From positions 360,119 through 424,118 of the forward strand of contig DAOWKC010000002.1 of NCBI GenBank assembly GCA_030640025.1: DNA of 64,000 bases, written 5' to 3'. Within the stretch, counting starts at the first letter, position 1. Each line of letters begins with the position of its first letter. Source of the stretch: Candidatus Woesearchaeota archaeon. Lineage in GTDB: Archaea > Nanobdellota > Nanobdellia > Woesearchaeales > JAGLXL01. Positions 3,519-58,473 of this stretch are shown here, one piece after another. The notes below the pieces were generated by a model. The model did no database searches and was not told the DNA's origin. It saw only the letters and a list, made by a program, of their open reading frames with translations. The translations under genes and the position numbers were made by a program.

Positions 3519-3573
3519 GAGGAAAAATAAAAAGATTTTTCCTCTAAGTTTGTATGTAACAAGGTTACATACA
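3519..3573. promoter_or_regulatory. two adjacent palindromes in the divergent wHTH-regulator/xpd promoter region
   Basis: GAGGAAAAAT-N6-ATTTTTCCTC (3519-3544) and TGTATGTAAC-N3-GTTACATACA (3551-3573). Confidence 0.5.
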
Positions 3574-3613
3574 AAAAAGGATATTTTTTTATAGTAATCA
3601 TGAGTTTGATTTT

Positions 3614-5452: not shown

Positions 5453-5689
5453 ACTGTTTTGTTACTAATTAATAGAAAATTCTATTTTATCGACGACAAA
5501 TCTCTGTTTTGGTTGGAATAATTAATATACAAATAAGTATACTGGTATCATGAAATAGTAACATTTATATATTGGTATGCATATACTCTATACTATGAGA
5601 TCAATGCCAAAGTGCGTGTATCTTCAACAAGATTTTATCAAGGAAAATTATGAAATCAGGAAAAGATGGATTGAAGATACTATTAAAAT

Positions 5690-6040
5690 CACTCGGGGTC
5701 AGCTGAAGACTCTAGCTTCATAATCAAAGATGGGCTCCCATCTTTATTCTAGCAAACCACCCCTCACAATCTTGGGAGCCCTTTGATATTCATCAAATCA
5801 TAAAACGGCCGGATGACTGTTTCGGTTGTTTTCCAAAGGAGGTGAGGTACTAATCCTTCACCGGTCTTAGAGGTAGCGGATTTGGCCTCAAAAAAGGCGG
5901 TAACAAGGTAAATCAATCCTCACTTCTTTTATGTTTTTTGGCGGAAAAAGAGGTTTTCAATATGACTGTATCATGGGCTATGATGCAGTTGAATAATCAA
6001 GAGGGCAGCTCAGGCTGGGTTGCCCTACTTTTCTTCTTTG
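5690..6040. ncRNA. candidate structured ncRNA (unassigned). GC-rich, hairpin-dense stretch in a 785-bp non-coding gap.
   Basis: Stems GGGCUCCCA/UGGGAGCCC (5732-5781), GGUGAGG/CCUUCACC (about 5843-5866) and GGGCAGC/GUUGCCC (6003-6025). Local GC is well above the window background. Confidence 0.2.
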
Positions 6041-6237
6041 AACAAAAAGTTTAAATAGAAATTAAGATTCATTTATGTATATGAAAGGGGTTTTAGGTGT
6101 TGTTTTTTCTGTTGAAAAATATGTTTGATCTAGCTTAATTTCTGTTTATTTTGAAAAACCTTACAATGTAGGTATTCTTGTAGAAAATAGAAAGATTTTT
6201 AAATAAAAGTTTCATTCTCACTATGTAAGTATTTTAA

Positions 6238-6453
6238 ATGGGCAAAAAGAGGAAAAAAGAGGGTGGAGAAGCACTTATTTCTATTCCTACCTCTATATTT
6301 CAAGACCGTGAATTGAGTGTTCTTGAGGCAATTACTGAATATTTGAAAGAAAAGAAAGGAATGCGGTATAGTGAGATTGCTAAACTTCTGAATAGAGACG
6401 ATCGAACCATTTGGACATCGTATAATCGGGCTAAGGCTAAAAGGAAAAAATGA
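6238..6453 (+). CDS. small HTH protein (sigma70 region 4 / HTH_10-like), leader of the giant-protein operon
   Basis: LSVLEAITEYLKE...YSEIAKLLNRDDRTIWTSYNRAKAKRKK. About 45% identity to both HTH repeats of the 60471..61106 protein. Stop overlaps the start of the giant ORF (ATGA). Confidence 0.55.
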   Translation: MGKKRKKEGGEALISIPTSIFQDRELSVLEAITEYLKEKKGMRYSEIAKLLNRDDRTIWTSYNRAKAKRKK

Positions 6454-9400
6454 TAGATAGTGTGCTGAGCGGACAGAGAAAGGAAATCCATAGCTTGAAA
6501 AATAAAATCAAGAGGGCTGTGGGTGACAAAGAAATTTTAGCTAGACAAGAAGCCTGTATAGAACAGAGTTTTGAAAATGAAAAGATTAGTTTTTTGGAAC
6601 ATAGACAATTGCTCAATCGATGCAGGCAGCTGGATAATTCTTATAATAATCTGATTGCAGGTTGGGAAAAGAAGATTGCGAGAATTGAGAGGGGGCCAGC
6701 CCAAAAAACTTCAATCAAAAATATTTTGCCTGTTTTGATTTTAGGATTGGTGGCCTTTGTTTTGGTTCTGTCATTGCTTGGAGGCCGGGGAGTTTTGACA
6801 GGATTGTTTGTAAGTGAAAATACATTTGTGATTGAGGGTGAATTTAGACTGGATTTGAATGAATTCTTTGAAGTGGGAGAGGGTTGGAGTTATTATACTT
6901 CTGATGCTGAAAACATGGATGTAATTATTTTGAATCAAGAGTTAGTGGTGACTCCTGAAGATGGTTTTGTTGGCGAAAATAAGGTGACGGTTTATGCTTC
7001 TAATGGTTCTGATATGATTGAAGAGGAAATTATTTTGGAAGTGGCAGGAGGATTTGGTGTGGGTCCTGCTCCTGAAGAGGTTGTCGAAGAACCAATCGTC
7101 AATGAAACTGTTGAAGTGGTTGAGAATGTGACAATTGAACCAGTTGAGAATGTTACTGAGCCAATAAATGAAACAACTGAACTAGTTGTTAATGAAACCA
7201 TAGCACCAGAGCCAGAGCCTGAGCCAGTGGTTGAAGAACCTGTTAATGAAACAGTTCCAGAGATTATTCCAGAAGCAGTACCAGAAACAGGTATGACTGT
7301 GGATTCAGAAAACAAACTAAAACTTGACAATAAATTCATTGGCAAGAGAACAGATGACGGAGAAATCGAATTGTACTTTGATTTGATTGAAAAAACTGCT
7401 GACAAATTAATTTTAGAGTTCCATCATAATTCTGACAAAGCAGAGAATGTTTATGTTAGCCGGGGAGTTCTTGATAAACCAGTGCTTCAACCAGGAGAAA
7501 AAGCCAGGTTTGAAATTGATTTAGTTGAGGGTATTGTATCTAAGTTTGTGTTGAAAGCAGGAGTCAAAAAGGGCTTTGCTGTCGAAGCCCAATATTCAGA
7601 AGTATTTGAAATTGGTAAGACGATTCCAGTTGTTTCCAGTAATGGTAATTATACTTTGATTGACAGAGATGATGAAAAATTAAATGTGGAAATTGTGAAG
7701 GACAAAGGCAGGATAGCAATTGTTGGAGTTGTGGATGAGCCAAGGATTAATTCCAAGATTGAATCAGTTGCTAATGCTGATTTAACAACTGAGGTAGCTG
7801 CTGTTGAACCAATGACTATGGAAAGAGCTACCATCACTATTCCAAAAACAGGCAAAGTTGATGTGATTATGGAATGCAGTGAGATGGATGTTGAGAATAT
7901 GGTTTGCTTGGGCGAATGGCAGAAAACAGATATTATATTTACTGATAATGGAGATACAATTACCTTTACTGTTGACCATTTCAGTGGTTATGGCGGAGCT
8001 GAGTTAGAAGTACTTAATCTCCAGAGCTATCCAACTTTAGAAGGGAACTGGACAGTTGAATTTACAACAACTGGCACTGCTGATTTAAGGATAACAGCAG
8101 TGGATGGTACGACTTGGAGCAATATCAATGAAGATAGTGTCCTGAGAGGCGGAGCCTCTGGGACACAAGAGGGTTCCCCTCTTCGTGATTTGAAATTCTT
8201 AGAAGTCAGATGTGGAGATAGTGTTTTGGATTATACTTGGGTAGATAATTCGGTCTTGATTGAAAATTATTATTGCAATGAGACAGGTTATGAAACCAGT
8301 AAGGTTTTGACAACTGGTAAACATACTTTGAAATTTGAATTTGGAGATGATGTTGATTATGCTTATAATTATGTGTACAGTGGTGGTTATGATATGACCA
8401 GTCAAGATAATATAAGTTGGATGGGAGGACAACATGCAGCAACTGGCGGTTATCTTGGGGTGACGCTTGACTGGGCAGATGTCAATGGTGATGGTCATGC
8501 AGATGCGATTGTTGGCAGTTATTACAATAATAGCGGCCTGGGAGCAGTATATCTCCTTTATGGGCCTCTTGAAAGGGTAACAGATGTAGATATTTCATCA
8601 AAAGCCGATGCAGCTTGGTATGGTCCTTCAGTAGATTATGTTGGCACTTGTATTGGAACAGGAGACCTGGACAATGACGGCTATGATGATATTTTAATTG
8701 GGGCTCATGCTTATGATAATGATGCTTTAGATGGAAGAGTTAATGTGATTTACGGGCAAGCAGCAGCCTTTTCAGGAACTACAGACATGGACATAGCAGC
8801 AGATGCAACCTTTACAGGAAATGTAGAAGCTTTGGGCATGGCTTGCGACTGCGCAGACATTAACGGAGATGATTATGAGGATATTTTAATGACCAGTTAT
8901 GGTACAGGCCTTAGCAGCGACGGGATTACTTATTTGGTTTATGGACAAAGCACTAAGTTTTCTGGAGACACAGCTGTCAGTAATGCAAATGCATCATGGA
9001 CCAATGCTGGTTCGTTTGGAGAGGCTTATATTGTAAGAAGAGCCGGTGATATCAATAGTGACGGTTATGATGATTTTCTCATTGGTGAGCCAGCAATCAA
9101 TAATACTTATTTGTATTATGGGCAGGGTGCGAAATTCTCAGGAGCACACACACTCAGCACAAGCGCAAACGCAACCTTTGCAACAGCAACAACCTCAGAT
9201 TCATGCGGTTGGTCTGTTTCTTCAGCTGGTGATTTTAATGCTGATGGTTATGATGATTTCCTGATAGCGGCTCCATCAACTGATGGTCAAGAATTAACAG
9301 ACAATGGTATGGTTTACTTTTTTTATGGAGGCCAGGGATATCCATGGAGCGGAACTATAGCAATGAGTACGACTTACAATGCTTCTTTTCATGGTTATTC

Positions 9401-12400
9401 CAATACATACATGGCAGGAGCGCCGCACGAAACTGGTGCTAATGTTTATATTGGCGGTGCCTTGTCTTACGGAGATTTTAATATTGATGGTTATTCAGAC
9501 TTTTTAATTGGGTCTTATGGAGCTGATGTAGGAGGACATACTGATAATGGAGAAGTGGTTCTTGTTTATGGAAGACCTGCATTTTCCTCTGTAAATGGAT
9601 ATGAATATTCAATGGATATTAGTGCTGGAGAAGTAAATGCGAGCTTTTATGGTGAGGTAAACACAGACAGACTAAGATTTGTGCCAACTGGTATGGCAGA
9701 AGATGTATTTTATGAACACATAATGATGGGGGCTGATGGTTTTGATAATGGCGGAGGGGGTTCTTGTCCGTTCTTGTATGTTTGGGACGGAACAGAATTT
9801 GGTTTCCATGTTGACATATATCCTTCTGGAAGGCTTGGTTCAAAAATAGCAAGCGGAACACTTCCTCCACAGCCAAAAGATTATTACTTAATATCTAAAG
9901 AAAGTTTGACTGCTGCGGATGGAAAATATCAACTCCGCCTTGTTGAAGAAAGGGATGAAGTTGATTACCTTGATCAAACAGAACTCTATGTTGTTGAACA
10001 TACACCAAATACTGAAGTGGTTCCTGAATTAACAGGATTCAATCCAAAATATAAAATGAAGCTTTATTTATTAAATGAGACTATGGTACCTATCTCTTGT
10101 ATAACTGATACTGGCGAGAACTGCACAGATAAGTTGGCTGCTCAGGATTATGATTTTATTGGATTGGGAGACCGGGAATATCTTGACTGGCATTATGTTG
10201 AACTTGACTTTGGAAATATTCCTGGAGATGCTGCTCTTGTCTTTAGGGGCTATAGTGTCTGGCCTCTAACTCCAGAAGGGGTTGCTAGAAGATCATTGTT
10301 TGATAAATATGCATATATTCAGATTTATAATGGCACTGATTGGGTTAATTCTTCCTTGTATCTGCCTAACCCCAAGGAAATAACCCGGGATGCTCCCCTA
10401 AATTTCACAGGTTTGTCTCCAAATGGAAATTATAAAGTCAGGTTGCATTGGGTGCACAACACTTTCTTGGACCAGATCTATATGGGTACAATAAGTGATG
10501 AAGAAATAAGTATCACCAAACTTAATATCACTTTTGCTAACTTGACTCATCATGGAACATCTCACTTCTCAAGCTATCCTCCTCCGCTTAACTCAGATTA
10601 CGAGACTGCTAATGCAATACCCAGCAATTACAAGTATTATGATGGAAATTACACAAGATACGGCGATGTCCTGGAATTATTAAATAAAACAGATGACAAG
10701 TTTGCCATCTTCCATGCAGGCGATGAAATACAGCTGGAATGGGATGCTTATAATCCAACCCAAGATTATGACTTTATGCTGTATTCATATGGGTACTATA
10801 AGGACCGAAAAGCAGCAATTAATACACCCAACATGACTGAAGATGTTGAGCCCTTGCCTTTCCATGATATGAGCAACTTCCCTTACCCTGACAACGAGAG
10901 CTATCCTGATGATGAAGAACATAATAATTATCGCTTAACTTATAACACCAGAGAAAGAATTCATGGAGAAGATGTCACAACTTCATTGCCTCACAGCGAT
11001 GAAGGAAAAGTTTATGTGATGGAAGGAGCGCTGAATCATCCACCAGCTCATGACACGCCAATCTTAAATGCAACAAGTGTTGATAACTTAACCTTAGATG
11101 ATTTGATAGTCTATGTGCAGAATGTCAGTGATGTTGAAAACGATTCTGTGACAAACATTACTGACTGGAGAAAAGACGGAACTTCTATAGCTGTGCTGAA
11201 CATGCCTTTTGATACAAATGATTCTTTAGCTGTAGATGATTATTCTGACTATGTGAATGATGGAACAGTTAATGGAACAACATGGACAAGTTCTGGAATA
11301 TTAGGGGGAGCTTATGAATTTAAACGTACTAATACTGATTACATAGAGATTACTGATGATGCTTCATTAAATCTGACAGGTGATATTACTCTAGAAGCAT
11401 GGATTAAGTCAGATAGTATTGGTGTAGCACAATATATTATATCAAAGCCACTGAATGATGGTATGGGTAATATGCGTTCTTATCCTTATACCCTTTATTT
11501 ATCTCAAGGTAAGATTTGTATGAGAGTTTATATTGATGGTTGGAGCATTTATGCGGCTGGAAGCAATAATACAGTCTGCTCAGACAATAATGTTTCAGAA
11601 GGCACGTGGTCCCATGTTGTGGGAACTTATGATAACAGCACTGGTTTAACATCTATTTACATAAACGGGACAGTGAATAAATCAGCTGTAAGAACTACTC
11701 AGGACGCAGGTTTAACAAAAGCAACACCTGTATTTATTGGTTCTGAAATAAGTACTTTGGGAGTTAAAGGGTGGTCTGCCTTTAACGGTACGATAGATGA
11801 AGTCAGAATTTACAATAGAACTTTGAGTGCAGAACAAGTTGCAGCTAATTATAATAATAGTGATCCTAAGTATGACAAAATTGTTTCAGAGGAAACTGTT
11901 GTTGATGATATATGGCAGGCCTGTATAACACCAAATGACAGAACAGATGATGGGATAACCAAGTGTTCAAATAATTTGACAATTTTAAATACAGCGCCAA
12001 CCCAAGGCAGACCAATTTTAAATTCAACTGACCCCAGTAAAAATAACACTAATCAAAACTTAACTGTTTATAATCAGTCAACTAGTGACGATGATGATCA
12101 TGCAGTCAAGAATATTATTAATTGGTATAAAGATGGGGGTTCGATTACTGAAGTGCATATGCCGTTTGAAGGCGGAGGAAATGCAACTCATGATGAAGAC
12201 GGTTTCACTAAAGATTATTCTGGACATGGAAATAATGGCTCAACAGCAGGTGGCATTACCTGGAGTAAAACAGGGGGATATGACGGCAAAGGAGCTTATG
12301 AGTTTGATGGGATTAATGGTCAGATTACTATTGCTGATGATGCTACCTTAAATGTAGGAGATAAGATAACAGTAATGACCTGGGTTAAAGCTGACACCAT

Positions 12401-15400
12401 GCCTGATGACGGAGGTGCTACTTTTAGGACAATTGCCTCTAGAACAAGAGTATATGATGATGCTAATACAGTTTGGTATTTGGTTTATGCTGAAAACGAC
12501 GGGAAACTTTATTTTGCTGTTGGGAACGGCGCTTCAAGAATACAGTCTTTGAACAGCTTTACAGCTCCGGATTCAAACTGGCAGCATATAGCTGGTGTTT
12601 ACAATGGTTCGCATACGCTGCTTTATATAAACGGCTCTTTGATAAATGTGTCGAGTTCAACAGTCAGCAGCATAAAGAGTACAAATAATAATATTTTAAT
12701 TGGAGAAGATAGTGGCAGGCCTTGGAACGGTACGATTGATGAATTGATAATTTTCAATCGTTCTTTGTCAGCAGAACAAATCAAAGTGTTGTATGAAAAT
12801 AGGACAGATTTAATTGTTTCACAAGAAACTGCTGTTGATGATGTATGGCAGGCATGTATAACACCAAATGACGGAACAGATGACGGGACTGAGAATTGCA
12901 GTAATGATTTGACAGTTATTAATAATATTCCAACCCAAGGCAGACCGATTTTGAATTCGACTGACCCCCACACAAATAGCACTGATCAAAATTTGACTGT
13001 TTATAATCAATCAACTGATGATGCTGATGAGGATGCAGTCAAGAATATCATTAATTGGTATAAAGATAATACTTCATTTACTATGTTGAATATGCCTTTT
13101 GAAGGCGGTTTGCTGGCTGAAGGAGAGACAAAAGTTAAAGATTATTCTCAGTTTGGTAATAATGGAACAGTAACAGAAGCAATTTATCAAGGGTCAGGTG
13201 GTTATGATGGAAAGGGAGCTTATTGGTTTGATGGAAGCAATGATTACATTGACTGCGGAGCTGATAATAGTGTCAATCAGACTGAGGAGATGACGCTGAG
13301 TGCCTGGATAAAATATGATGCAGTGACTGACAATTATGGTGCACTGATGGCTAAGTCAGACGGAGCAGGAATCACTGCTGGATGGAGGCTCCATTGGAAT
13401 AATGCCAATCCTGAATTGAGATTCTTACTAGCTTTGGCCAGTGGAAATAAAGCAATAACCAGTCCAAGTTTAACAGCAAGTACATGGTATCATGTGGCAA
13501 CTACCTTTAATGGTACTGGGATGGCAATTTATGTTAATGGGACATTGGTAAGCAGCACAAGTTTTGCTGCGACAACAATTAAGCCAGCAACCAATGCCTT
13601 AAGGATTGGGGCTGATAATCAGGATTTGAATTTCAAAGGAACGATTGATGAGGCGATGATTTTTAATCATTCGTTAAGTGCTGAACAAATCCAGGTTTTG
13701 TACCAGAACAGGACAGATTTAATTGTTTCCCAAGAAACTTCTATTGAAGATGTTTGGAAAGCCTGTCTGACACCAAATGACGGAACTGTTGACGGAGTTG
13801 AGAATTGCAGTAATGATTTGACTGTTTTGAGAGATTATGCACTTTGTGGAGATACTTTGCAGGCAAACAACCGGTATGTATTGAAGAATGATACTTCAAG
13901 TACAGGAACCTGTTTTACAATCCCTGGCGACAATATTGAAATTGACTGCCGGGGATACAAAATCACTGGACCAGGGGGTACAGGCGTTTCCTATGCAATC
14001 TATTCAGCAGCTGCCAGGACTAATTTAACTCTCAAGAACTGCTGGATTGAGGATTTTAACCGTGGAGTTTATCGTGATTTTGTAAATTCAAAGTTCATTA
14101 ACAACACTTTCAACTACACTCGTACTTGTGGCATTCATCTTAGGTCAGCTAGTAGCTATCTTAATATCAGTGGAAACACTTTTATTGATACAGGAAAAAC
14201 CTCGCCAGCCAACAGCAATGCTGGTTCTTACTCAATCTTTCTTGACAGTGCTGATAACGTTGATATCTATCACAATACTTTCACCCGCGGCCTTGGCTCT
14301 GAAATTTACTTCAATGGCGCCAGCACCAACAGGAATATCAAACATAATTATGTTGACAAAGATAATATCAACAATGAGATCTTTTATTTTTTAACAGTTA
14401 CTGGTTCAGCTACTGTTGAAAACAATACTTTTGTCAATGTTGGAGCTGGTTGGGCTTATTATCTCACAAGTGTTAACACACTCATTACCTTTGTTGGCAC
14501 TAATCTGGTTGATGGGGAAAACGCCAGCAATTATTTTGTTTATAACAGAAATAACACCATCATTGAAAATCTAAATCATAACGGCTCAGAAAGAGTTCTT
14601 AACTGGGGTAATTTTGTTGCTTATAATTGTGATAATCTGACTGTCAGGAACAATAATTTCACCAATCATCATAGCTATTCCAACATGTACCTGCGTAGTG
14701 TAGATAATTCTGACATTTACAATAACAACATCATCAATAGAACCACCGGGGGTACTTACAACTTTCATATCTATCACTGTGATAATTTAAATATTTTCAG
14801 CAATGAAATAAAAGATACCCAAGCTGATGGATTGAAATTAGACACCTGTAGTGGAGCTCAGATATATGATAATAATATTTCAGCTAGTACATCCAGTGGT
14901 AGTTATGCCTTTGATATGTACAGCACCGCTGCTGGTCATGGCCATGCGGTTATTAAAAATAATAATATCTCAGGCGGATCTTACTCAGCATATTTTGCCG
15001 GGACTAGCTCAACTGCCTTGACCAATGTCTCTTTTTTTAATAATTCAATCTCTGGTATGGGGTCCACCGGAATCCATCTTAATGCAGGTATGATTGATGT
15101 TTCTAACAACACCATCACTTGTCCAAATAATCATCAAGGCATCCACCTCGTTAGTGCCACTGGCAACCACACTGTCTTTGGAAATCAAATCAATAATTGT
15201 CGATATGGCCTTGCTCTGCAAAGAGGAGAATCAAGAATCCAGAATAATACTATCACAACCAGAACAGCCACACCAACACAAACTTGGGGAGTTCATGTTC
15301 AAAATGTTGATAACCATCTCTTGAATGTCAATCTTACCAGGGACAACACTGTTGATGGCAAGGCTGTGCCTTATTATTTCAAAGAATCTGCTGCCAGCAT

Positions 15401-18400
15401 CTCTGATCAGAACATTAATTTAACCAAATTAATCAGCACTGGGATAACTTTAATTGGTTCTAATGATATGGTTATTGATAACAATAACATCACTGGCAAT
15501 GATGCAACTATTGGTGGTGCAGGCATAACCTTGTTATATTCTAATTATACCAACATCACCCATAATAATTTCCATGATTTTAACTATGCAATTAACCTAC
15601 CTTACTACCTTGATCAATCAGAAAGAGCTTATATTGCCCATAATTATTTCAATAGCTCGAAGTATGGAATATATTTCTCCGTTAATGTCCAATATAAAGT
15701 TAATTATACCATTTTCAATAATACTTTTTATCAAATAGGTACCAATCCAATTTATAGGTACTGTTCCGCAACTGCACCACACAGAAACAGCCGGATGAAC
15801 ATAACTGGTAACCTGTTTAATTATTCAGCATCACGAGATATGCATTTAGGTAATTGTGTTAATAATACCATAGAAGGCAATAGGTTTGATTATACAGGCA
15901 CTCAAAGTATATACTTTTATAATGCTGACCAGAACACCATCAAAAACAATAATTTCACTAATATTAGAACTGATGGAACAAGCGCTTATTATATATACAT
16001 ACAAAGTGGAAGTAGTAACAATAATATAACTGGCAATCGCTTTACTGGTTCTCCTGGTTATCCTTATTATGGTTTAGGAGTAGATTCGTCTAATAACAAC
16101 CATGTCTCTGGAAATTATTTCAATAACTCTAGATATGCTATTTACTATTTTAACACTGCCAGCGGCAACCCCACTTATAACAATGAGATATATAGTTCTA
16201 CCACAGCCGGTTTCAGAGTTGCCAATGCCAATAACCAGAATATTTACAACAACACAGTTTGTTATAACAAACAAGCTGTTTCATTCACCAATGCAGCTTA
16301 TAATCTCAGCACAGTTGGCTGGCATAACAACTTGATGTGCGTCAATTCCATTATCCCAGAAAACGGCACTACCATCCAGGACACCACCCCGGAAATCTTC
16401 TTCCACATTTCCAACTTGATGGATCAATCTTCAACCAATTGTTCTGCTGTTATCAATGGTGTTGAAAATGGTTATAATGATACTATGGGAGCAGACGGTC
16501 AAAACCAAACTATCCAAGTTTCAAATGCTTTGGCAAGCGGAGAAAACTTCCTCCAAATCAACTGCACTGATGATTATAATGATACTTTGGTATTCCATAA
16601 TATTTCATTCAATGTCCCAATAACATGTAGTGATATTGCTGATGATATTATCATGTTTGCAAATATATCTGCTGATTTGAGAGTTTGCTTTAATATAACA
16701 ACAAATAATATCACAATTGACTGTGATGGTTACACTTTAATCGGCAATGGTTCAGTTGGAATACAAGCAAATGGTTATGACGGATTGACAATTAAGAATT
16801 GTGTGTTTGAGAATTTTACACAAGACATTATTTTTGACAATTCAGATAATGGAACAGTTGAAAATACAGATGTTATTATTAATATTACAAATTCAGAGAA
16901 TGCAGTGGTCAATCTTTCTGATGTTGACTGGCTGTACATCACTAATTCAACAAATGTTCGGGTTGTTGATTCAATTGTGAGAAATTATACTTTTGCTAAT
17001 GCAACTTTCTTTATGATGGAAAACAGCACTTATGGACAGCTTAAGTTCTTAAAGAATGTTTCTGGTATTGGAACCAATCTGTTTGTAAATTCCAGTTCAG
17101 ATATTGTTTGGGAGAGCTTGAGTGTAGGAGTGAATTCAGTTAATCAGCCAGCCTTTAATATTTCAGCAAATGTTTCCTTGTATAATGTACTGCAAATCCT
17201 GCCGCAGCTATATGTTAATATCAGCGGCAACTGGACTTTGTGTAATGAAACAACCAGTCCGTCATGTTATAATTTGAGTTATGCGAACCAAGTTTACATC
17301 TTTAATGTTTCACACTTTACATCATTTATATCAAAGGAATTTGCTGGTTTGATACAGAATTTTAGCTGGCCAGCACATCTGCCAAGAGCAGGCTATGAAG
17401 GAACAATAATATTGATTGACATAGATAAGAATGGAACCAGGGATTTACATATAACCGGCAGTCTTGATACAGTAACTTATTATAATGAAGTTCACCTTAA
17501 TACTGGTGATAATTTTTCTAAGGACACTTCCTTGAGCGGTGATTTGAAAGGAGTGTCTTACAGCGGAGCTGCCTGGGGTGATTATAACAGAGATGGTTAT
17601 TCTGATTTGGTCTATTGCGGTAAGAATGCAACTCATGTTATGACTGAAGCCTTGACAAGTGCAGATGGGAAAGTTTTGAACCGGGATATTCCAAGCATAG
17701 GCAATCTGACTGATGTGGCTTATTGTTCTGTGGTCTTTGGGGATGTGGATGTTGACGGTGATTTGGATTTGGCCCTGCAAGGACAGATTGATCCAACAGC
17801 AGCAGTTTGTGAAGTTTACACTAATAATGATGGAGTCTTTAATTTGAATGTAACTTTATCAAGCAATTGCACTGGAAAATATGATGGTGAATTGAAGTTT
17901 GTTGATGTGAACAATGACAGCTTTGTTGATTTGTTGAGCATAGGTGTTACTTTAGCTGGAACTCCTTTGATTGAGGTTATGATTAATGGCAATGGCAACA
18001 AGTTAGAGCTCAATACATCATATTATAATCTGCTTAATTTAAGCAAAGCAACTTTGAATTATGGAGATATGGACAATGATGGTCTAAGAGATATAATTTA
18101 TCATGGAACAGAGGCAGGAGGGGGAAGTTCACGAACAGTTTGGTATAAGAATACTGGTTCGGGTTTTACTGAGGTAGGTAATCATGACATGAAGAATTTA
18201 ACCCAAGGAGCAATTTGTATTGTTGATTTTAATAATGACGGCTGGAGAGATGTTTATATGTCTGGAAATGAATTGGCATCAGGGAATTATCATGCAGATG
18301 TTTATTTGAATAATGGAGATGGAAGCGGGTTGTTTAAAAGTTATCAATACAGTATTAATTTATCGGCAGGGTTTAGAAGTGCTTGTGCTACGGCTGATGT

Positions 18401-19319
18401 TGAGAATGCGTCACATGCTGATTTAGTAGCAACTTGGGGCAGTGGAGGACCTGATAATTTTGTGGGTGGATGGAATGGTAATCCTGATACTTGGGTTGTG
18501 CCGGATAATGCCAGGCCGACTGCAGTAGGACCGCCAAATGTTGAGGCTAATGATATGGGTGGAGGAATGATGGAGATAACGATGGATTCAGGAGATGGTG
18601 ATGATGACGTGCCGCCGAGGGATGAGGACAATGGAGATGTGGTTGGTTATGATGCAAAAGACATTGTATCTGGAGATATATTAATTTCAAATGAACCAGG
18701 ACAAGTAGCATCGCCTGGTTCTTATGACATGACCTACCCAGCTAAAGCAAGCACTGCTATACTAAGAACAAGTATCACCAATGTGGTTGATGTTAGTTGG
18801 TGGGATTTGGACGAAGGTTATGAACTAAGTGATATATCAGATACTACAACAGTTTGGATAGCTGATGTGTTTGAGGTAGTGGGCAGTCTGGCTGCAATAA
18901 TTGTTGGAGATGATTGTTATCTTTCAACAGATAATACCACACTAGGATCTCATACTATCCCTTGTTCTAATCTTGGTAACTGGTCGACATTAAATCTGTC
19001 AATCACGCCAAGGACACCTTATAATTTAACTGTTCATTGTACAAAGAATATAACTGCAGAGTTTGGTGATGGAACTGAGAATAATAATTATATTGGGAAA
19101 GTCCAGAATACATCTTACACAGGTAACAGAACAATTATTGCTGATGCCTGGGTTTTAGCAAATTATAATGCTTCTTCCTTGTATCCGATTATGTTAGTCC
19201 AGAATGGCACTTTTACTGGCACTAACCATAATTATACTATTGAAGTTGGCAAGGAATTAGATGTTTTAACACCCGTTGGAAATTATAATAATACCATTGT
19301 CTTTACAGTTTGGGTATAA
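6450..19319 (+). CDS. giant surface protein (4289 aa). Contents: signal anchor, NET/PEP-rich stalk, two FG-GAP beta-propeller blocks, 3x LamG/ConA-like, long right-handed beta-helix.
   Basis: TM at aa 93-115. FG-GAP repeats (DVNGDGHADAIVGS, DLDNDGYDDILIGA, etc.) at about nt 8400-9560 and 17400-18300. LamG_3-like modules (LTLEAWIK...GTIDEVRIYNRTLSAEQV) repeated three times between nt 11090 and 13850. PbH1-like NNxI repeats at about nt 13860-16900. Hundreds of N-x-S/T sequons. Confidence 0.9.
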   Translation: MIDSVLSGQRKEIHSLKNKIKRAVGDKEILARQEACIEQSFENEKISFLEHRQLLNRCRQLDNSYNNLIAGWEKKIARIERGPAQKTSIKNILPVLILGLVAFVLVLSLLGGRGVLTGLFVSENTFVIEGEFRLDLNEFFEVGEGWSYYTSDAENMDVIILNQELVVTPEDGFVGENKVTVYASNGSDMIEEEIILEVAGGFGVGPAPEEVVEEPIVNETVEVVENVTIEPVENVTEPINETTELVVNETIAPEPEPEPVVEEPVNETVPEIIPEAVPETGMTVDSENKLKLDNKFIGKRTDDGEIELYFDLIEKTADKLILEFHHNSDKAENVYVSRGVLDKPVLQPGEKARFEIDLVEGIVSKFVLKAGVKKGFAVEAQYSEVFEIGKTIPVVSSNGNYTLIDRDDEKLNVEIVKDKGRIAIVGVVDEPRINSKIESVANADLTTEVAAVEPMTMERATITIPKTGKVDVIMECSEMDVENMVCLGEWQKTDIIFTDNGDTITFTVDHFSGYGGAELEVLNLQSYPTLEGNWTVEFTTTGTADLRITAVDGTTWSNINEDSVLRGGASGTQEGSPLRDLKFLEVRCGDSVLDYTWVDNSVLIENYYCNETGYETSKVLTTGKHTLKFEFGDDVDYAYNYVYSGGYDMTSQDNISWMGGQHAATGGYLGVTLDWADVNGDGHADAIVGSYYNNSGLGAVYLLYGPLERVTDVDISSKADAAWYGPSVDYVGTCIGTGDLDNDGYDDILIGAHAYDNDALDGRVNVIYGQAAAFSGTTDMDIAADATFTGNVEALGMACDCADINGDDYEDILMTSYGTGLSSDGITYLVYGQSTKFSGDTAVSNANASWTNAGSFGEAYIVRRAGDINSDGYDDFLIGEPAINNTYLYYGQGAKFSGAHTLSTSANATFATATTSDSCGWSVSSAGDFNADGYDDFLIAAPSTDGQELTDNGMVYFFYGGQGYPWSGTIAMSTTYNASFHGYSNTYMAGAPHETGANVYIGGALSYGDFNIDGYSDFLIGSYGADVGGHTDNGEVVLVYGRPAFSSVNGYEYSMDISAGEVNASFYGEVNTDRLRFVPTGMAEDVFYEHIMMGADGFDNGGGGSCPFLYVWDGTEFGFHVDIYPSGRLGSKIASGTLPPQPKDYYLISKESLTAADGKYQLRLVEERDEVDYLDQTELYVVEHTPNTEVVPELTGFNPKYKMKLYLLNETMVPISCITDTGENCTDKLAAQDYDFIGLGDREYLDWHYVELDFGNIPGDAALVFRGYSVWPLTPEGVARRSLFDKYAYIQIYNGTDWVNSSLYLPNPKEITRDAPLNFTGLSPNGNYKVRLHWVHNTFLDQIYMGTISDEEISITKLNITFANLTHHGTSHFSSYPPPLNSDYETANAIPSNYKYYDGNYTRYGDVLELLNKTDDKFAIFHAGDEIQLEWDAYNPTQDYDFMLYSYGYYKDRKAAINTPNMTEDVEPLPFHDMSNFPYPDNESYPDDEEHNNYRLTYNTRERIHGEDVTTSLPHSDEGKVYVMEGALNHPPAHDTPILNATSVDNLTLDDLIVYVQNVSDVENDSVTNITDWRKDGTSIAVLNMPFDTNDSLAVDDYSDYVNDGTVNGTTWTSSGILGGAYEFKRTNTDYIEITDDASLNLTGDITLEAWIKSDSIGVAQYIISKPLNDGMGNMRSYPYTLYLSQGKICMRVYIDGWSIYAAGSNNTVCSDNNVSEGTWSHVVGTYDNSTGLTSIYINGTVNKSAVRTTQDAGLTKATPVFIGSEISTLGVKGWSAFNGTIDEVRIYNRTLSAEQVAANYNNSDPKYDKIVSEETVVDDIWQACITPNDRTDDGITKCSNNLTILNTAPTQGRPILNSTDPSKNNTNQNLTVYNQSTSDDDDHAVKNIINWYKDGGSITEVHMPFEGGGNATHDEDGFTKDYSGHGNNGSTAGGITWSKTGGYDGKGAYEFDGINGQITIADDATLNVGDKITVMTWVKADTMPDDGGATFRTIASRTRVYDDANTVWYLVYAENDGKLYFAVGNGASRIQSLNSFTAPDSNWQHIAGVYNGSHTLLYINGSLINVSSSTVSSIKSTNNNILIGEDSGRPWNGTIDELIIFNRSLSAEQIKVLYENRTDLIVSQETAVDDVWQACITPNDGTDDGTENCSNDLTVINNIPTQGRPILNSTDPHTNSTDQNLTVYNQSTDDADEDAVKNIINWYKDNTSFTMLNMPFEGGLLAEGETKVKDYSQFGNNGTVTEAIYQGSGGYDGKGAYWFDGSNDYIDCGADNSVNQTEEMTLSAWIKYDAVTDNYGALMAKSDGAGITAGWRLHWNNANPELRFLLALASGNKAITSPSLTASTWYHVATTFNGTGMAIYVNGTLVSSTSFAATTIKPATNALRIGADNQDLNFKGTIDEAMIFNHSLSAEQIQVLYQNRTDLIVSQETSIEDVWKACLTPNDGTVDGVENCSNDLTVLRDYALCGDTLQANNRYVLKNDTSSTGTCFTIPGDNIEIDCRGYKITGPGGTGVSYAIYSAAARTNLTLKNCWIEDFNRGVYRDFVNSKFINNTFNYTRTCGIHLRSASSYLNISGNTFIDTGKTSPANSNAGSYSIFLDSADNVDIYHNTFTRGLGSEIYFNGASTNRNIKHNYVDKDNINNEIFYFLTVTGSATVENNTFVNVGAGWAYYLTSVNTLITFVGTNLVDGENASNYFVYNRNNTIIENLNHNGSERVLNWGNFVAYNCDNLTVRNNNFTNHHSYSNMYLRSVDNSDIYNNNIINRTTGGTYNFHIYHCDNLNIFSNEIKDTQADGLKLDTCSGAQIYDNNISASTSSGSYAFDMYSTAAGHGHAVIKNNNISGGSYSAYFAGTSSTALTNVSFFNNSISGMGSTGIHLNAGMIDVSNNTITCPNNHQGIHLVSATGNHTVFGNQINNCRYGLALQRGESRIQNNTITTRTATPTQTWGVHVQNVDNHLLNVNLTRDNTVDGKAVPYYFKESAASISDQNINLTKLISTGITLIGSNDMVIDNNNITGNDATIGGAGITLLYSNYTNITHNNFHDFNYAINLPYYLDQSERAYIAHNYFNSSKYGIYFSVNVQYKVNYTIFNNTFYQIGTNPIYRYCSATAPHRNSRMNITGNLFNYSASRDMHLGNCVNNTIEGNRFDYTGTQSIYFYNADQNTIKNNNFTNIRTDGTSAYYIYIQSGSSNNNITGNRFTGSPGYPYYGLGVDSSNNNHVSGNYFNNSRYAIYYFNTASGNPTYNNEIYSSTTAGFRVANANNQNIYNNTVCYNKQAVSFTNAAYNLSTVGWHNNLMCVNSIIPENGTTIQDTTPEIFFHISNLMDQSSTNCSAVINGVENGYNDTMGADGQNQTIQVSNALASGENFLQINCTDDYNDTLVFHNISFNVPITCSDIADDIIMFANISADLRVCFNITTNNITIDCDGYTLIGNGSVGIQANGYDGLTIKNCVFENFTQDIIFDNSDNGTVENTDVIINITNSENAVVNLSDVDWLYITNSTNVRVVDSIVRNYTFANATFFMMENSTYGQLKFLKNVSGIGTNLFVNSSSDIVWESLSVGVNSVNQPAFNISANVSLYNVLQILPQLYVNISGNWTLCNETTSPSCYNLSYANQVYIFNVSHFTSFISKEFAGLIQNFSWPAHLPRAGYEGTIILIDIDKNGTRDLHITGSLDTVTYYNEVHLNTGDNFSKDTSLSGDLKGVSYSGAAWGDYNRDGYSDLVYCGKNATHVMTEALTSADGKVLNRDIPSIGNLTDVAYCSVVFGDVDVDGDLDLALQGQIDPTAAVCEVYTNNDGVFNLNVTLSSNCTGKYDGELKFVDVNNDSFVDLLSIGVTLAGTPLIEVMINGNGNKLELNTSYYNLLNLSKATLNYGDMDNDGLRDIIYHGTEAGGGSSRTVWYKNTGSGFTEVGNHDMKNLTQGAICIVDFNNDGWRDVYMSGNELASGNYHADVYLNNGDGSGLFKSYQYSINLSAGFRSACATADVENASHADLVATWGSGGPDNFVGGWNGNPDTWVVPDNARPTAVGPPNVEANDMGGGMMEITMDSGDGDDDVPPRDEDNGDVVGYDAKDIVSGDILISNEPGQVASPGSYDMTYPAKASTAILRTSITNVVDVSWWDLDEGYELSDISDTTTVWIADVFEVVGSLAAIIVGDDCYLSTDNTTLGSHTIPCSNLGNWSTLNLSITPRTPYNLTVHCTKNITAEFGDGTENNNYIGKVQNTSYTGNRTIIADAWVLANYNASSLYPIMLVQNGTFTGTNHNYTIEVGKELDVLTPVGNYNNTIVFTVWV
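11090..13850 (+). repeat. intragenic tandem repeats (about 930-bp period, 3 copies, roughly 85% nt identity in cores) encoding LamG/ConA-like modules of the giant protein
   Basis: Near-identical stretches around 11860-12130, 12790-13080 and 13690-13850. Antisense shadow ORFs 11849..12049 and 12623..12982 are mutually similar. Confidence 0.8.
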
Positions 19320-19375
19320 ATTAGTCACTGGAGAATAGTAAACTTTATAAAGGTTTAAGGTTATTTGTTCTTAAA

Positions 19376-22021
19376 ATGGGAACTAATTCAGATAGGATTG
19401 ACTTAGAGCAATATATCAAGAAGAAGCATGGTTTAGAGAATTTTGATAAGATTGTGAAGGCCTCTAAGGATAGAGATTTATTTGATTTTTATTGTTCTAA
19501 AGTTGCTAAGGAAGATCCAGAAATAGTTAGGCAAGAGATTGATGTGATGATGAGTGGTGAGGGAACACGAGTTGGTGTTGAGGCAAAAGTTGCTGATGAT
19601 GCGGCTACTGCAATCTCAGAAAAAAGAAGAGAGAGAGCTAAGAAAGTAACACCTGGAGAAACTTGTTTTGAATTTGCTGGCAGGGCAAAGGCAGTGACTA
19701 GAATCATTCAAAAAGGCATGGAAGGCGGTGCAACTGTTTTAGAGATTATGGCTGAAGATGGTTCAAAAGAAAAAGTGAGAGAAGATGAGGTGGTTGGTTT
19801 TTCAGTGAGAGATAATGAAACAGTAACAATTAATGATGCTGGCAGAATTTTAACTCAAAAAGGAAAAAAAGTTCCAAAAGGAACCAAGATTTATTCTTTG
19901 ACAAAGGTTTTGGATGCAAAACAATACCATTTTTCTGATATTTATGAAATTGTTGACCCTGAAGTGGCCAGAGGCGGCATGGGCAAGATTATGAAAGTTT
20001 TTGACAAAGCAGTGGGCAGAGAAGTAGCAATGAAGGTTGCTTTGATGAATAGAGAAGCAATGCTGCAAAGATTTCGATTTGAAGCGCGAATTACTGGCCA
20101 ATTAGAACATCCTAATATCATCAGGGTTTATGATGTAGGTAAGGATGATAATGGCAATCCATATTACACAATGGAGTTTATTAGAGGCGGCTCATTAGAC
20201 AATATTTTACAAAAACAGAAAAAAGCAATATTAGCAAGACCAGGAAAGAAAAGAAAAAAGAAGGAAGATTTAGAAAATGAAAAAGCATTAAAAGAATATT
20301 CTTTGCCAAAATTATTAGATATTTTTCTTAGAGTTTGTGATGGTGTTTCTTATGCGCATTCAAAGGGTGTGATTAATCGTGATTTAAAGCCAGAGAATGT
20401 GATGGTAGGTAGTTTTGGTGATGTTCTAGTTGCCGACTTGGGTTTGGCAAAACAACTTGGCACTGAAGACGTGATGGGTTCTGCTTTAGAGGCCAGAGTA
20501 TCAAAATTAAAAAAATCAAAAAATGAAAAAGTTCAGTATCAAGCAGCAGAAGAAGTTGACGTTGGTTTGACACAAGACGGCACAACCATGGGAACTCCTG
20601 CTTACATGCCGCCTGAGCAGGTTGAAGGAGAGCTTGATCAAATAGACCAGCAGTCTGATGTTTATTCTTTAGGCGGGATTTTATATGAAATATTGACAAA
20701 AGAAAGGCCAGTAGAAGGCGCTTCAAATGCCGAGATTTTTAATAAGATTTTGCTTGGTAGAATAGTTCCGCCAAGTGAGCGTGTTGATGAAATAAAAGTT
20801 CCGGGTGAATTATCAGCCATAGCAATGAAAGCAATGGCAGTGGAAAAAGCAGACAGATACCAAAATGTTGAAGAATTGGCTGAAGATATTAGAGCTTATT
20901 CAGAACATCGAGAAGTTAAGGCATATAATTATACTCGGTGGGAAAAAATTGTTAAAGCTGTGAAAAGACATCCAGTAGCAGCTTGGGCAGCTGGAATTGG
21001 ATTATTTGTAGCCTTGACAGCAATAGCAATAACTGGTCCTGTGATTTACAGTGAAAAAGCTGCTAAAGAAGCCAAGGCCAGAGAAGCTGTTGAAGCAAAG
21101 GCAGGAGAAGCAGAAGCTTTGGAAGAGAAATTAGAAGCTGAAAAAGAGTCAAGCAAAAATAAAGAATTAGCATTACAAAAATCAGAAGAAGCAAGAGTGA
21201 GTGCTGAGTTAGCAGAAGACAAAGCTTTGGAAGCGCAAAAATCAGCAGAAGGAGAAGCAGTTGCTTTAAAGGCAAAAGCTGATAGGGCTGAGGCTGTTAG
21301 TCTGAAAGACCAAGGAAATATTTTTATGGAAAAAAGTAAAAAAAATCATCAAAGAGCACTAGAATATTATTTAAAATCTTGTAAGGCAGACCCTTCTTTT
21401 CCTGAGGCTTGGAATTGGATTGGTCATATCAAGTTTAGTTTAGCACGGCGTGTGGCTGATGAAGAAAAAAGAAATAAATTATTTTTAGAAGCAAAAAGTG
21501 ATTTGGAAAAAGCAATAGAATTAGATAATAATCCTGAAGAAATGGATAAATTAAGAGGACGGGCTCAAGTTAATCTGGCAGATGTTTATGTTGTTGGTTT
21601 GCGTGATAAAACCATGGGAGAAAAACTATACAGAGAAGCAATTGCTAAATCTCCTGATTACATCACTGCATATAATAAACTGGCGCGTTTGTTATCTTCT
21701 CGAAAAAGATATGAAGAAGCAATGCAGAATTACAAAAAAATAACTGAGATATCAGAAGATTACTGGGTTGGCTGGGAAGGATTGGGTTATATTCATTTGA
21801 AACACGGCCGGTTGGTAGAAGCAGAAAAATGTTACCGAAAGGCTAAGAAAGGTCATCCAGAATCTTATTATTCTCTAGCAGAAATAAAATACCGGCAGGC
21901 TGATTGGCAAGCAGCTAATAGTTTCTTGACAGTATTAGAAGATGTGCTGCCAGACTATAAGACAGAAAAAAGAATTAAAATGCAAAGAGAAGTTGAGGAA
22001 AGGCTGGTTCAAGGTAAGTGA
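19376..22021 (+). CDS. Hanks-type Ser/Thr protein kinase with TM helix and C-terminal TPR repeats
   Basis: ARGGMGKI, VAMKV, HRDLKPEN-like VINRDLKPENVM, DLGLAK and GTPAYMPPEQ motifs. TM helix AAWAAGIGLFVALTAIAITG. Coiled-coil then TPR-like repeats to the C-terminus. Confidence 0.85.
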   Translation: MGTNSDRIDLEQYIKKKHGLENFDKIVKASKDRDLFDFYCSKVAKEDPEIVRQEIDVMMSGEGTRVGVEAKVADDAATAISEKRRERAKKVTPGETCFEFAGRAKAVTRIIQKGMEGGATVLEIMAEDGSKEKVREDEVVGFSVRDNETVTINDAGRILTQKGKKVPKGTKIYSLTKVLDAKQYHFSDIYEIVDPEVARGGMGKIMKVFDKAVGREVAMKVALMNREAMLQRFRFEARITGQLEHPNIIRVYDVGKDDNGNPYYTMEFIRGGSLDNILQKQKKAILARPGKKRKKKEDLENEKALKEYSLPKLLDIFLRVCDGVSYAHSKGVINRDLKPENVMVGSFGDVLVADLGLAKQLGTEDVMGSALEARVSKLKKSKNEKVQYQAAEEVDVGLTQDGTTMGTPAYMPPEQVEGELDQIDQQSDVYSLGGILYEILTKERPVEGASNAEIFNKILLGRIVPPSERVDEIKVPGELSAIAMKAMAVEKADRYQNVEELAEDIRAYSEHREVKAYNYTRWEKIVKAVKRHPVAAWAAGIGLFVALTAIAITGPVIYSEKAAKEAKAREAVEAKAGEAEALEEKLEAEKESSKNKELALQKSEEARVSAELAEDKALEAQKSAEGEAVALKAKADRAEAVSLKDQGNIFMEKSKKNHQRALEYYLKSCKADPSFPEAWNWIGHIKFSLARRVADEEKRNKLFLEAKSDLEKAIELDNNPEEMDKLRGRAQVNLADVYVVGLRDKTMGEKLYREAIAKSPDYITAYNKLARLLSSRKRYEEAMQNYKKITEISEDYWVGWEGLGYIHLKHGRLVEAEKCYRKAKKGHPESYYSLAEIKYRQADWQAANSFLTVLEDVLPDYKTEKRIKMQREVEERLVQGK

Positions 22022-22244: not shown

Positions 22245-22658
22245 TCATTTCCTTGAATGATTCTCCAATTCTTTTACTAATTTAGGAATTTCAGAAATAG
22301 CTTCTTTAACAGTCTCAACTTCGATATCGTTGCCATAATAGTTTATCCCATTTCTTAATTTTCTATATCTATCAAATTTTTTGAAAAGAGATTGTTCTTT
22401 TAGGATATCTCTCAGAAAAAATCCTATTGATTCATGGTCTAGAAATTTATACCCATTTAGATAACCTATGGCTTCACAATATTCTCTTAATCCTTCATAA
22501 AGTTCTCTAAGAATTGTTTTTGAAGTATTTGTGTTTAATGGTATAACTTTTGCCGTTTCAATAGCTTGAATAGAAGATTTGAACAAACTTGAAGCCCTTA
22601 TTTTATTAGGCATGACCTTTTTTGATTTTCCACTATTCAAACTAAATTCAAAATTCAT
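22245..22658 (-). CDS. HEPN domain protein (PF05168-like), partner of the upstream nucleotidyltransferase
   Basis: GYK..HE helix and C-terminal RKLRNGINYYG, with Tyr at the canonical Rx4-6H position. Start overlaps the NTase stop by 1 nt. Confidence 0.65.
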   Translation of the reverse strand: MNFEFSLNSGKSKKVMPNKIRASSLFKSSIQAIETAKVIPLNTNTSKTILRELYEGLREYCEAIGYLNGYKFLDHESIGFFLRDILKEQSLFKKFDRYRKLRNGINYYGNDIEVETVKEAISEIPKLVKELENHSRK

Positions 22659-58452: not shown

Positions 58453-58473
58453 TTTACCTCGTCATACATCTTT

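Follow-up and report, generated by a model that had tools for sequence, protein, structure and literature searches.

What regulates a surface protein of several thousand residues in an archaeon, and which of its neighbors belong to it? How DPANN episymbionts perceive their hosts and govern the contact with them is, to our knowledge, an open question; giant surface proteins are the usual suspects, and we know of no description of their regulation. The question is raised by a locus of Candidatus Woesearchaeota (GenBank assembly GCA_030640025.1, contig DAOWKC010000002.1, positions 360,119 to 424,118), part of a 583-kb metagenome scaffold, which we analyzed as a window of 64,000 nucleotides (nt); coordinates below refer to this window. 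Three genes follow one another on its forward strand, encoding a 71-amino-acid (aa) helix-turn-helix (HTH) protein, a 4289-aa giant protein, and a Ser/Thr kinase, and an earlier reading of the sequence (the original prediction) had taken them for one host-attachment apparatus with its own regulator and signaling kinase. We consider it fairly probable that positions 6041 to 19319 form a self-contained two-gene module, in which the HTH protein would autoregulate the HTH-giant operon. The features on which this reading is built are the following.

6041 to 19315, + strand: 13.3-kb cassette (promoter, HTH gene, and giant gene), a clean indel relative to a second Woesearchaeota genome (locus L012), with boundaries from blastn
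6156 to 6176, no strand: operator site A, upstream of the TATA box, core CCTTACAATGTAGGT, 20.1 bits with the position weight matrix (PWM) of the family
6190 to 6209, + strand: transcription factor B recognition element (BRE) and TATA box of the HTH-giant operon (GAAAGATTTTTAAATAAAAG), read from the sequence, with TATA at ~6196 to 6205
6213 to 6233, no strand: operator site B, between TATA and ATG, core TCTCACTATGTAAGT, PWM score 19.1 bits
6238 to 6453, + strand: HTH gene, 71 aa, sigma-70-region-4-like, the proposed autoregulator
6450 to 19319, + strand: giant gene, 4289 aa

The three open reading frames (ORFs) lie where the original prediction had placed them, and the ATGA overlap that it described was recovered: the ATG of the giant gene (6450) overlaps the HTH stop codon (6451 to 6453). 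An AAGGA located 7 nt 5' of this ATG could act as a ribosome-binding site. The small protein had been called sigma70-r4/HTH_10-like, and its fold agrees with the first part. Sigma70_r4_2 (PF08281) matches it with an E-value of 7e-5 and 22.7 bits, below the gathering score of 25.7, and a precomputed PF08281 match is present in many of its homologs; HTH_23 matches weakly, and HTH_10 is not among the Pfam matches. An AlphaFold (AF2) model (predicted local distance difference test score [pLDDT] of 85) is a small helical HTH, whose top Foldseek matches in the PDB are region 4 of SigR, SigE (on -35 DNA), AlgU (AlgU-MucA), and SigK (SigK-RslA), followed by LuxR/RcsB-type proteins. The region-4 matches superpose with a root mean square deviation of ~1 Å over 42 to 44 residues at a probability of ~1; their E-values (0.03 to 0.6) are weak because the domain is small.

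The conservation that had been expected of this small ORF is extensive. At least 200 homologs, most of them 64 to 80 aa long and 50 to 99% identical, were found among 5.8 billion proteins, and a family profile search of 1.84 billion representatives (50%-identity clusters) returned 2,198 clusters, 1,986 of them at E <= 1e-10. The second half of the alignment is near-invariant (LLNRDDRTIWTxYxRAKxKR, with the recognition helix NRDDRTIWTxYxR), the C-terminal helix is basic, and both fold and motifs place the protein with the sigma-4/LuxR-type HTH domains that read DNA. Sigma70_r2 is absent from the window HTH and from the precomputed domains of 120 homologs, and longer family members are tandem HTH repeats (doublets of 140 to 200 aa and quadruplets of 300 to 370 aa), not combinations of sigma-2 and sigma-4. 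Since a sigma-2 domain occurs nowhere in the family, its members are not sigma factors. A GTDB scan with one genome per species identified 189 HTH loci, all in Nanoarchaeota-type metagenome-assembled genomes (MAGs) or single-amplified genomes (SAGs), of which 80 were analyzed; the synteny partners and all relatives of the window locus are Woesearchaeota/Nanoarchaeota MAGs or SAGs. Many MAGs with the module (loci L019 to L092, binchicken assemblies) are titled "uncultured Methanosarcinales archaeon", probably a taxonomic mislabel.

The coupling of this HTH to a membrane protein recurs throughout the family. On seven long metagenomic contigs with unrelated flanks, a large ORF (1351+, 1554, 1651, 2670, and 4207 aa, in addition to truncated ones) always overlaps or abuts the 3' end of the HTH gene. 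A same-strand ORF of >=100 aa starts between -90 and +30 nt from the HTH stop codon in 66 of 79 loci, with an exact 4-nt overlap in 32 of the 66. A single frameshifted gene, with the HTH fused to the N terminus of the giant, was considered and rejected on the recurrence of this overlap. Nearly all of these partner proteins (63 of 66) have a transmembrane (TM) helix within their first 160 aa and are single-pass; 30 are at least 1000 aa long (in 13, the frame is still open after >3,250 aa, where the retrieved sequence stops), and the shorter ones often precede further ORFs of 1000 to 2700 aa. The HTH gene is also found directly 3' of a very large ORF in at least 12 loci. Overall, a frame of >=1000 aa adjoins or contains the HTH in 42 of 80 loci, compared with 4.8% of the other frames there. 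The flanking genes vary among loci; the HTH and its membrane protein are a conserved unit in Woesearchaeota-type (DPANN) archaea.

In some members the two parts are one protein. Among the 150 representatives with the highest scores, at least 17 are fusions of 655 to 5919 aa with two to four HTH copies at the extreme C terminus, and such fusions were also read directly in genome loci L075, L077, and L089. Their common plan runs from a helical cytoplasmic N-terminal tail through a TM helix, an (I/L)TG motif, and a huge sequon-rich ectodomain (LamG, beta-helix, and Ig-like modules) to a conserved juxtamembrane module, a second TM helix, a poly-Lys stretch, and alternating HTH subtypes. Of the two ends of the giant gene, it is always the one coding for the cytoplasmic tail that borders the HTH gene.

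Alignment of the 100 nt upstream of the HTH genes revealed a palindrome, ACTTACA[A/T]TGTAAGT, often extended to TACTTACAWTGTAAGTA and usually present in two copies, one upstream of BRE/TATA and one between TATA and the start codon. With at most one mismatch, it occurs 119 times in the 1.18 Mb of loci, and 100 of these matches lie within 700 nt upstream of an HTH stop codon; shuffles of 40 loci gave zero matches at the same threshold. A PWM for the 17-bp operator, built from 189 family sites, detects a site of >=10 bits in 41 of 70 upstream regions, most often two, versus 14 of 700 control segments. Sites A and B are the sole PWM sites in the 64-kb window (the next best scores 3.0 bits), and 50 shuffles gave a best score of 17.8 and a mean of maxima of 9.5. 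The two centers are 57 bp apart, TATA lies 38 nt before the ATG, and the orthologous promoters of loci L005 and L002 have the same arrangement of sites and TATA. In most family promoters, BRE/TATA is placed between two palindromes in a uniform orientation. Because this conserved operator pair flanks the promoter, the HTH protein is very likely the giant's own regulator, as the original prediction had proposed. The window holds a conserved palindrome overlapping the regulator's own core promoter, as in an autoregulated operator-repressor pair, with the binding itself a prediction.

Changes in the protein and in its sites point in the same direction. In a small clade with a tandem HTH, the recognition helix diverges in one copy (NRNEIALAVTYRNAKK), whereas the other copy is canonical; the sites of this clade are asymmetric and uniformly oriented (ACTTA[CT]ATAATAT), so that one altered recognition helix goes with one altered half-site. 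The promoters of the fused giants P0267 and P0260, which carry four HTH copies each, contain four related repeats around TATA boxes (TACATAAATAATAAGTA and TACATACA-N-WATAAGTA), the last of which abuts the ATG. L093, which encodes P0267, lacks the canonical palindrome and has a related asymmetric repeat in its place, as does the region upstream of P0260 in L109. Arrays of six to seven perfect palindromes spaced 45 to 53 nt apart, and tandem repeats of operator-plus-TATA units, occur in L058 (9251 to 9467), in L091 (4161 to 4528), and upstream of the HTH gene in L068, where the promoter modules appear to have been amplified. An RNA-hairpin role of the palindromes was rejected, site A being upstream of TATA and site B at or before the expected transcription start.

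In the mechanism that we propose, the TATA promoter would drive a bicistronic HTH-giant message with no leader or a short one, and the ATGA translational coupling would fix the ratio of the two products. HTH dimers would occupy the two palindromes flanking TATA. Site B probably overlaps the transcription start of such an mRNA, and its occupation would block TBP, TFB, and RNA polymerase and thereby repress the operon; we infer the negative sign of regulation from this position. The HTH protein would in this way cap its own level and that of a very costly giant. The giant may, in turn, hold or modulate the HTH protein at the membrane and so couple transcription to the condition of the surface protein. 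Even paralogous modules of a single genome are near-invariant in recognition helix and operator, which would entail cross-talk among modules.

Several observations weigh against this autoregulatory reading. Sites A and B differ from the consensus by 2 and 3 bases, and a search of the window for the exact pattern with up to 3 mismatches found 4 matches where 4 were expected; the significance of the operators derives from the PWM and their position across genomes, not from the exact pattern. The canonical site is missing from 29 of 70 family upstream regions, in many of which the HTH gene directly follows a coding sequence or variant sites are present. The covariation case comes from one small clade of three to four loci, and the fused-giant promoters that were read are two only. 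The transcription start, and hence the repressive role of site B, is placed by TATA spacing only. Many partner proteins have no cytoplasmic tail, with the TM helix at residues 1 to 30, so control through the tail cannot be general. Finally, no T-run terminator follows the giant gene, and transcripts may therefore read through into the kinase gene.

A second module of the HTH family lies at 57067 to 63947 on the reverse strand of the same window; degenerate operator-like sites only were seen in its promoter. It begins with the following genes.

61185 to 63947, - strand: surface-protein ORF, 920 aa
60471 to ~61019, - strand: tandem 2xHTH gene after the 920-aa ORF, 113 bits to the family profile and 39 bits to Sigma70_r4_2
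59623 to 60474, - strand: lipoprotein-like ORF, 283 aa, ATGA-coupled to the 2xHTH gene

Three more secreted or anchored ORFs follow the 283-aa ORF, and the last of these (57067 to 58452) ends in a TM helix and KKRRKKKKKRIK.

The giant protein itself is a modular extracellular protein, as had been predicted from its sequence, and its parts are arranged as follows.

6450 to 6722, + strand: cytoplasmic N-terminal tail (aa 1 to 91), a helical conserved domain matched by the tail profile described below, with no Pfam match
6723 to 6803, + strand: single TM anchor (aa 92 to 112, by hydropathy), followed by the post-TM LTG motif (aa 116 to 118)
6804 to 8366, + strand: membrane-proximal ectodomain (aa ~119 to 639), a Pro/Glu/NET-rich linker and further modules, no Pfam match
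8367 to 9749, + strand: FG-GAP beta-propeller block (aa ~640 to 1100), Pfam FG-GAP in six stretches (E 3.8e-28, 97.3 bits)
9750 to 11129, + strand: block missing in the L005 ortholog (aa ~1100 to 1560), no Pfam, NCBIfam, or PDB match
11328 to 13694, + strand: three LamG/ConA-like modules (aa 1627 to 1798, 1954 to 2112, and 2261 to 2415) with linker units, Pfam Laminin_G_3
13947 to 16319, + strand: right-handed parallel beta-helix (aa ~2500 to 3290), Beta_helix/NosD in four consecutive segments
17547 to 18449, + strand: second propeller-type block, FG-GAP_3/VCBS (aa ~3700 to 4000), Pfam FG-GAP_3 in five stretches (E 8.2e-22, 78 bits)
18450 to 19319, + strand: distal C-terminal ~290 aa, no Pfam or PDB match

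The helix at aa 92 to 112 is the sole TM-grade helix within the first 4,100 residues, and it is preceded by the basic, helical 91-aa tail. Hydropathy gave no TM-grade helix and no anchor at the C-terminal end, where a weaker hydrophobic stretch (aa 4134 to 4153) was not counted as transmembrane. From this single helix, more than 97% of the protein (~4,170 residues) is predicted to be extracellular and N-terminally anchored. The saturation with N-x-S/T sequons noted in the original prediction is borne out by 157 sequons, compared with 68.4 +/- 7.2 across 500 shuffles (z ~12), and on this load the giant is probably N-glycosylated. Pfam likewise supports each of the proposed FG-GAP, LamG, beta-helix, and second propeller assignments. 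The first block, a predicted propeller, is also matched by FG-GAP_3 (E 2.7e-12); Laminin_G_3 (PF13385) has three full-length matches (E 2.6e-31, 7.7e-29, and 8.2e-34, with 101 to 117 bits each, and an overall E of 7e-82); and Beta_helix (PF13229)/NosD reaches an E-value of 8e-30 (103.9 bits overall). The LamG modules are lectin-like by profile, with carbohydrate binding predicted at most, and host attachment is a plausible role of the giant. Pfam gave no family match for aa 115 to 640, 1100 to 1560, 3380 to 3680, and 4000 to 4289; PDB sequence searches with aa 1090 to 1600 and 4000 to 4289 found no match; and Pfam and NCBIfam scans of the giant detected neither an ATPase (including a VirB4/TraG-like ATPase) nor a protease domain.

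The 4207-aa ortholog in L005, whose HTH is 90% identical to that of the window, is 66% identical over aa 1 to 640 (the membrane-proximal ectodomain likewise has 66%), 55% over the propeller, and 37% over the beta-helix. It lacks all three LamG modules and the block at aa 1100 to 1560, a 460-residue segment that starts GGGGSCPFLYVWDGTEF. This block is probably a recently acquired module, since the ortholog in the closest relative does not have it; its single-sequence AF2 model (aa 1095 to 1565; pLDDT 35) is too low in confidence for use. The membrane-proximal ectodomain is also 36 to 41% identical to L010, L002, and P0267. A homolog search with aa 1 to 640 returned one match, the shared words probably having been dominated by the Pro/Glu-rich low-complexity linker. 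Modules are shared with the fused giants (aa 436 to 640, 41% identical to P0267; LamG units, 39 to 44% identical to P0244). Judging from these comparisons, the ectodomains of HTH-coupled giants are not conserved, and their modules shuffle rapidly.

The part that split and fused giants appear to share is the tail. A profile built only from the N-terminal tails of eight fused giants matches the tail of the window giant (E 2e-4) and 11 other partners, and on iteration it reaches 25 partners, a number to be read with caution for a Lys/Glu-rich helix; these matches suggest a common domain of ~90 aa. Because equivalent giants carry HTH copies fused to their cytoplasmic end and the N-terminal tail is conserved, the HTH protein is probably held or modulated at the membrane by the giant. 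It is possible, if doubtful, that the giant goes further and holds or releases the HTH protein by an anti-sigma or Notch-like logic. This extension of the autoregulatory reading would make the giant a receptor: its tail would sequester the HTH protein like an anti-sigma factor, the fused arrays would be freed by regulated proteolysis (as in Notch and RsgI), and the HTH would be released for its operators when the ectodomain met a host or came under mechanical load. We hold this extension only tentatively. The gene order and the ATGA overlap are those of sigma/anti-sigma operons, and the topology of the partner (single-pass, with the N terminus inside) fits the anti-sigma layout. The best structural matches of the HTH are sigma-4 domains, many of them solved bound to anti-sigma factors; HTH arrays occupy the cytoplasmic end of giants; the tail domain is kept in split and fused forms; and the sigma-70-like genes of Woesearchaeota come without a recognizable anti-sigma factor (Castelle et al. 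2021, PMC8204110). The juxtamembrane module and the post-TM TG motif could be processing sites. Of the 63 partner proteins, 30 have a [LIVMF]TG motif 8 to 45 aa beyond the TM start, compared with a background of 7.7%, and this motif may mark where the protein is processed or sorted on the outer side of the membrane. As (I/L/F/P)TG, it stands ~22 residues after the N-terminal TM start in partners of L013 to L092, corresponding to aa 116 to 118 of the window giant (6795 to 6803). Against the extension, Pfam searches of aa 1 to 330 at E-values up to 1 found no anti-sigma domain (zf-HC2, RskA, RseA_N, and the like) and only a weak coiled-coil-type match, the tail-less partners mentioned above have nothing with which to sequester an HTH in this way, and simple autorepression alone explains the layout of the operators.

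Whether the kinase belongs with the HTH and the giant is answered by gene order, and two features are needed for the comparison.

19320 to 19375, + strand: 56-nt spacer between the giant and kinase genes, with the kinase TATA box (TTTATAAA at 19344 to 19351), 82.5% identical in L012
19376 to 22021, + strand: Hanks-type Ser/Thr kinase-TM-TPR gene, 881 aa, a neighbor outside the module

The domain reading of the kinase was correct, with Pkinase at aa 197 to 461 (E 1e-35, 124 bits), one TM helix (aa 533 to 557), and TPR repeats (aa ~650 to 830); the spacer, given earlier as 57 nt, is 56 nt long. The motifs GGMGK, VAMK, NRDLKPEN, DLG, and PPE, with the His of HRD replaced by Asn, are those of a Hanks-type kinase, for which activity is predicted. 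The activation segment carries an insert of ~40 residues. The three genes are adjacent on one strand with a short gap and no obvious terminator, and the extracytoplasmic TPR region could sense surface events, both of which would suit a single host-attachment apparatus with its own regulator and signaling kinase. Synteny largely refutes this arrangement as a unit. In the Woesearchaeota MAG GCA_019323755.1 (L012), the backbone of endonuclease V, HD domain, S15, and XPD helicase genes is the same as in the window, and the kinase gene directly follows XPD, with neither HTH nor giant between them. By blastn, positions 6506 to 6571 of L012 correspond to 5975 to 6039 of the window, and positions 6574 to 6636 correspond to 19316 to 19378. 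Conversely, L005 has the module without the kinase: its contig runs ~13 kb past the giant gene, and no kinase from L005 is among the matches in the 5.8 billion proteins. None of 90 HTH loci from other genomes has a kinase within 10 kb. The HTH-giant-kinase triplet, whose conservation the original prediction had named as a check, is not kept in the related genomes compared, and the kinase and the giant are separable both ways.

The kinase has a TATA box of its own, 25 nt before its ATG, which is kept in L012, where no giant gene lies upstream. Its relatives in the database are one identical entry (NCBI genome), the L012 protein as the one archaeal relative, at 54% identity, with no other homolog above that value, and then Planctomycetota kinase-TPR proteins (33 to 47%); a metagenome scan yielded only proteins of 24 to 30% identity and no further synteny. 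The nearest relatives other than one Woesearchaeal protein being all from Planctomycetota, the comparison suggests that the kinase was acquired from bacteria. On gene order and promoter sequence, this bacterial-type gene, which has a promoter to itself, occupies its place in the chromosome independently of the module, and a three-gene apparatus is very unlikely.

The clean indel raises another alternative, namely, that the palindromes serve in recombination or phase variation or mark the ends of cassettes, with the HTH as an accessory protein (like an excisionase or recombination directionality factor) that moves or inverts surface-protein cassettes. The cassette sits in a variable island downstream of the XPD helicase gene, its 6040/6041 junction is also a breakpoint in L005 (where 3.5 kb of other genes follow), giant modules shuffle rapidly, the weak HTH_23 and HTH_38 matches recall the HTH of transposases and invertases, and the promoter is flanked by two palindromes. 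No site was found at the right end of the cassette or elsewhere in the 64 kb, however, and no recombinase gene is adjacent; BRE/TATA points the same way from locus to locus and is never inverted, and the sites keep fixed positions relative to TATA and ATG. We regard this alternative as even less probable than the three-gene apparatus. Least probable of all is that the HTH serves as a cotranslational chaperone or targeting factor for the membrane insertion of very large secretory proteins, with something else bound to the palindrome, since its strict coupling to membrane or secreted proteins and its fusion to their cytoplasmic ends are outweighed by a DNA-reading fold with a basic C-terminal helix, half-sites that covary with the recognition helix, and HTH copy numbers (1, 2, and 4) that fit palindromic half-site arithmetic.

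Around the module, the stretch from 5457 to 6040, after the XPD helicase gene, is 76 to 88% identical across four Woesearchaeal genomes. It contains a conserved 42-aa ORF (5596 to 5724) and a segment of ~210 nt (5733 to 5945) with a conserved predicted fold, in which 9 pairs are kept by double changes, and it ends in a hairpin with a T-run (6001 to 6035); the variable island begins right after, at 6040/6041. The stretch may hold an undescribed noncoding RNA; no tRNA genes and no Rfam families were detected in the window or in 5400 to 6300. Convergent with the kinase gene are a toxin-antitoxin-type pair of HEPN (23353 to 23892) and nucleotidyltransferase (23873 to 24445) genes on the reverse strand and a second HTH-nucleotidyltransferase ORF (22658 to 23188, reverse strand) beside an ORF without assignment (22245 to 22658). 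The version of the island in L005 also carries nucleotidyltransferase genes.

Returning to the two-gene module and its proposed autoregulation, the treatment of the kinase as a mere neighbor corrects a tempting over-reading of the locus. In the literature that we searched, we saw neither the region-4-only nature of the HTH family, nor its palindromic operator, nor its systematic coupling and fusion to single-pass giants described. Genes annotated as "sigma-70" (fam00359) have been reported to be common in Woesearchaeota, where no anti-sigma factor was seen and the mechanism was unclear (Castelle et al. 2021, PMC8204110). The HTH family is probably the same as fam00359. Our reading of these genes differs: a region-4-only HTH with a palindromic operator, coupled or fused to single-pass membrane proteins, would not be a sigma factor. 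The sigma-70-like genes of Woesearchaeota would accordingly be reframed as region-4-only regulators with a 17-bp operator, coupling to single-pass proteins, fusions of up to 5919 aa, and half-site covariation.

The closest bacterial analogy is with the extracytoplasmic function (ECF) sigma/anti-sigma pairs (sigmaE-RseA, AlgU-MucA, SigK-RslA, and SigI-RsgI), which share the sigma-region-4 fold, autoregulation from their own promoter (proposed in the case of the window HTH), and a coupled downstream gene for a single-pass protein with its N terminus inside and an extracytoplasmic domain. Unlike these, the window HTH is a region-4 module only, without sigma-2, in an archaeal host with TBP and TFB; the palindrome flanks TATA and is not a -35 element; and the partner has no known anti-sigma domain and an ectodomain of more than 4000 aa. 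The fused relatives resemble one-component membrane regulators (ToxR, CadC, and TcpP of bacteria; ArnR and ArnR1 of Sulfolobus; PMC6396743) in joining a DNA-binding domain, a TM helix, and an extracytoplasmic part and in the control, here putative, of surface-structure genes. They differ from them in that the HTH comes after the last TM helix, in two to four copies, on giant ectodomains, and in the window it is a separate gene. The neighboring kinase shares its kinase, TM, and TPR layout with bacterial Hanks-type TPR kinases (PknD/PknB-like; Planctomycetota kinase-TPR), the Planctomycetota proteins being its best non-archaeal matches at 38 to 47% identity, and is set apart by its archaeal host, NRD in place of HRD, long activation-segment inserts, and the lack of a PASTA or beta-propeller sensor.

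Giant proteins are known from other DPANN archaea, namely, the "SPEARE" proteins of Nanohaloarchaeota and LamG/PKD surface proteins, for which host contact has been proposed (PMC10266531). They are likewise multi-thousand-residue, membrane-anchored, strain-variable proteins with lectin-like or Ig-like modules, and some have a cytoplasmic domain. In SPEARE giants this domain is a VirB4/TraG-like ATPase (originally read as a protease plus an endonuclease), and they are read as secretion devices, whereas the cytoplasmic partner in the window family is a DNA-binding-type HTH with a conserved operator. A bolder generalization, to which we give a minor share of our confidence, is that the giants of Woesearchaeales and related Nanoarchaeota are adhesins and at the same time the sensor halves of a lineage-specific transmembrane signaling system, with the HTH either fused (Notch-like) or docked on the tail (anti-sigma-like). 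If this were true, the state of the ectodomain (host contact, load, or cleavage) would pass directly to a shared palindromic operator, and a genome with paralogous modules would possess a repertoire of surface proteins under cross-regulation.

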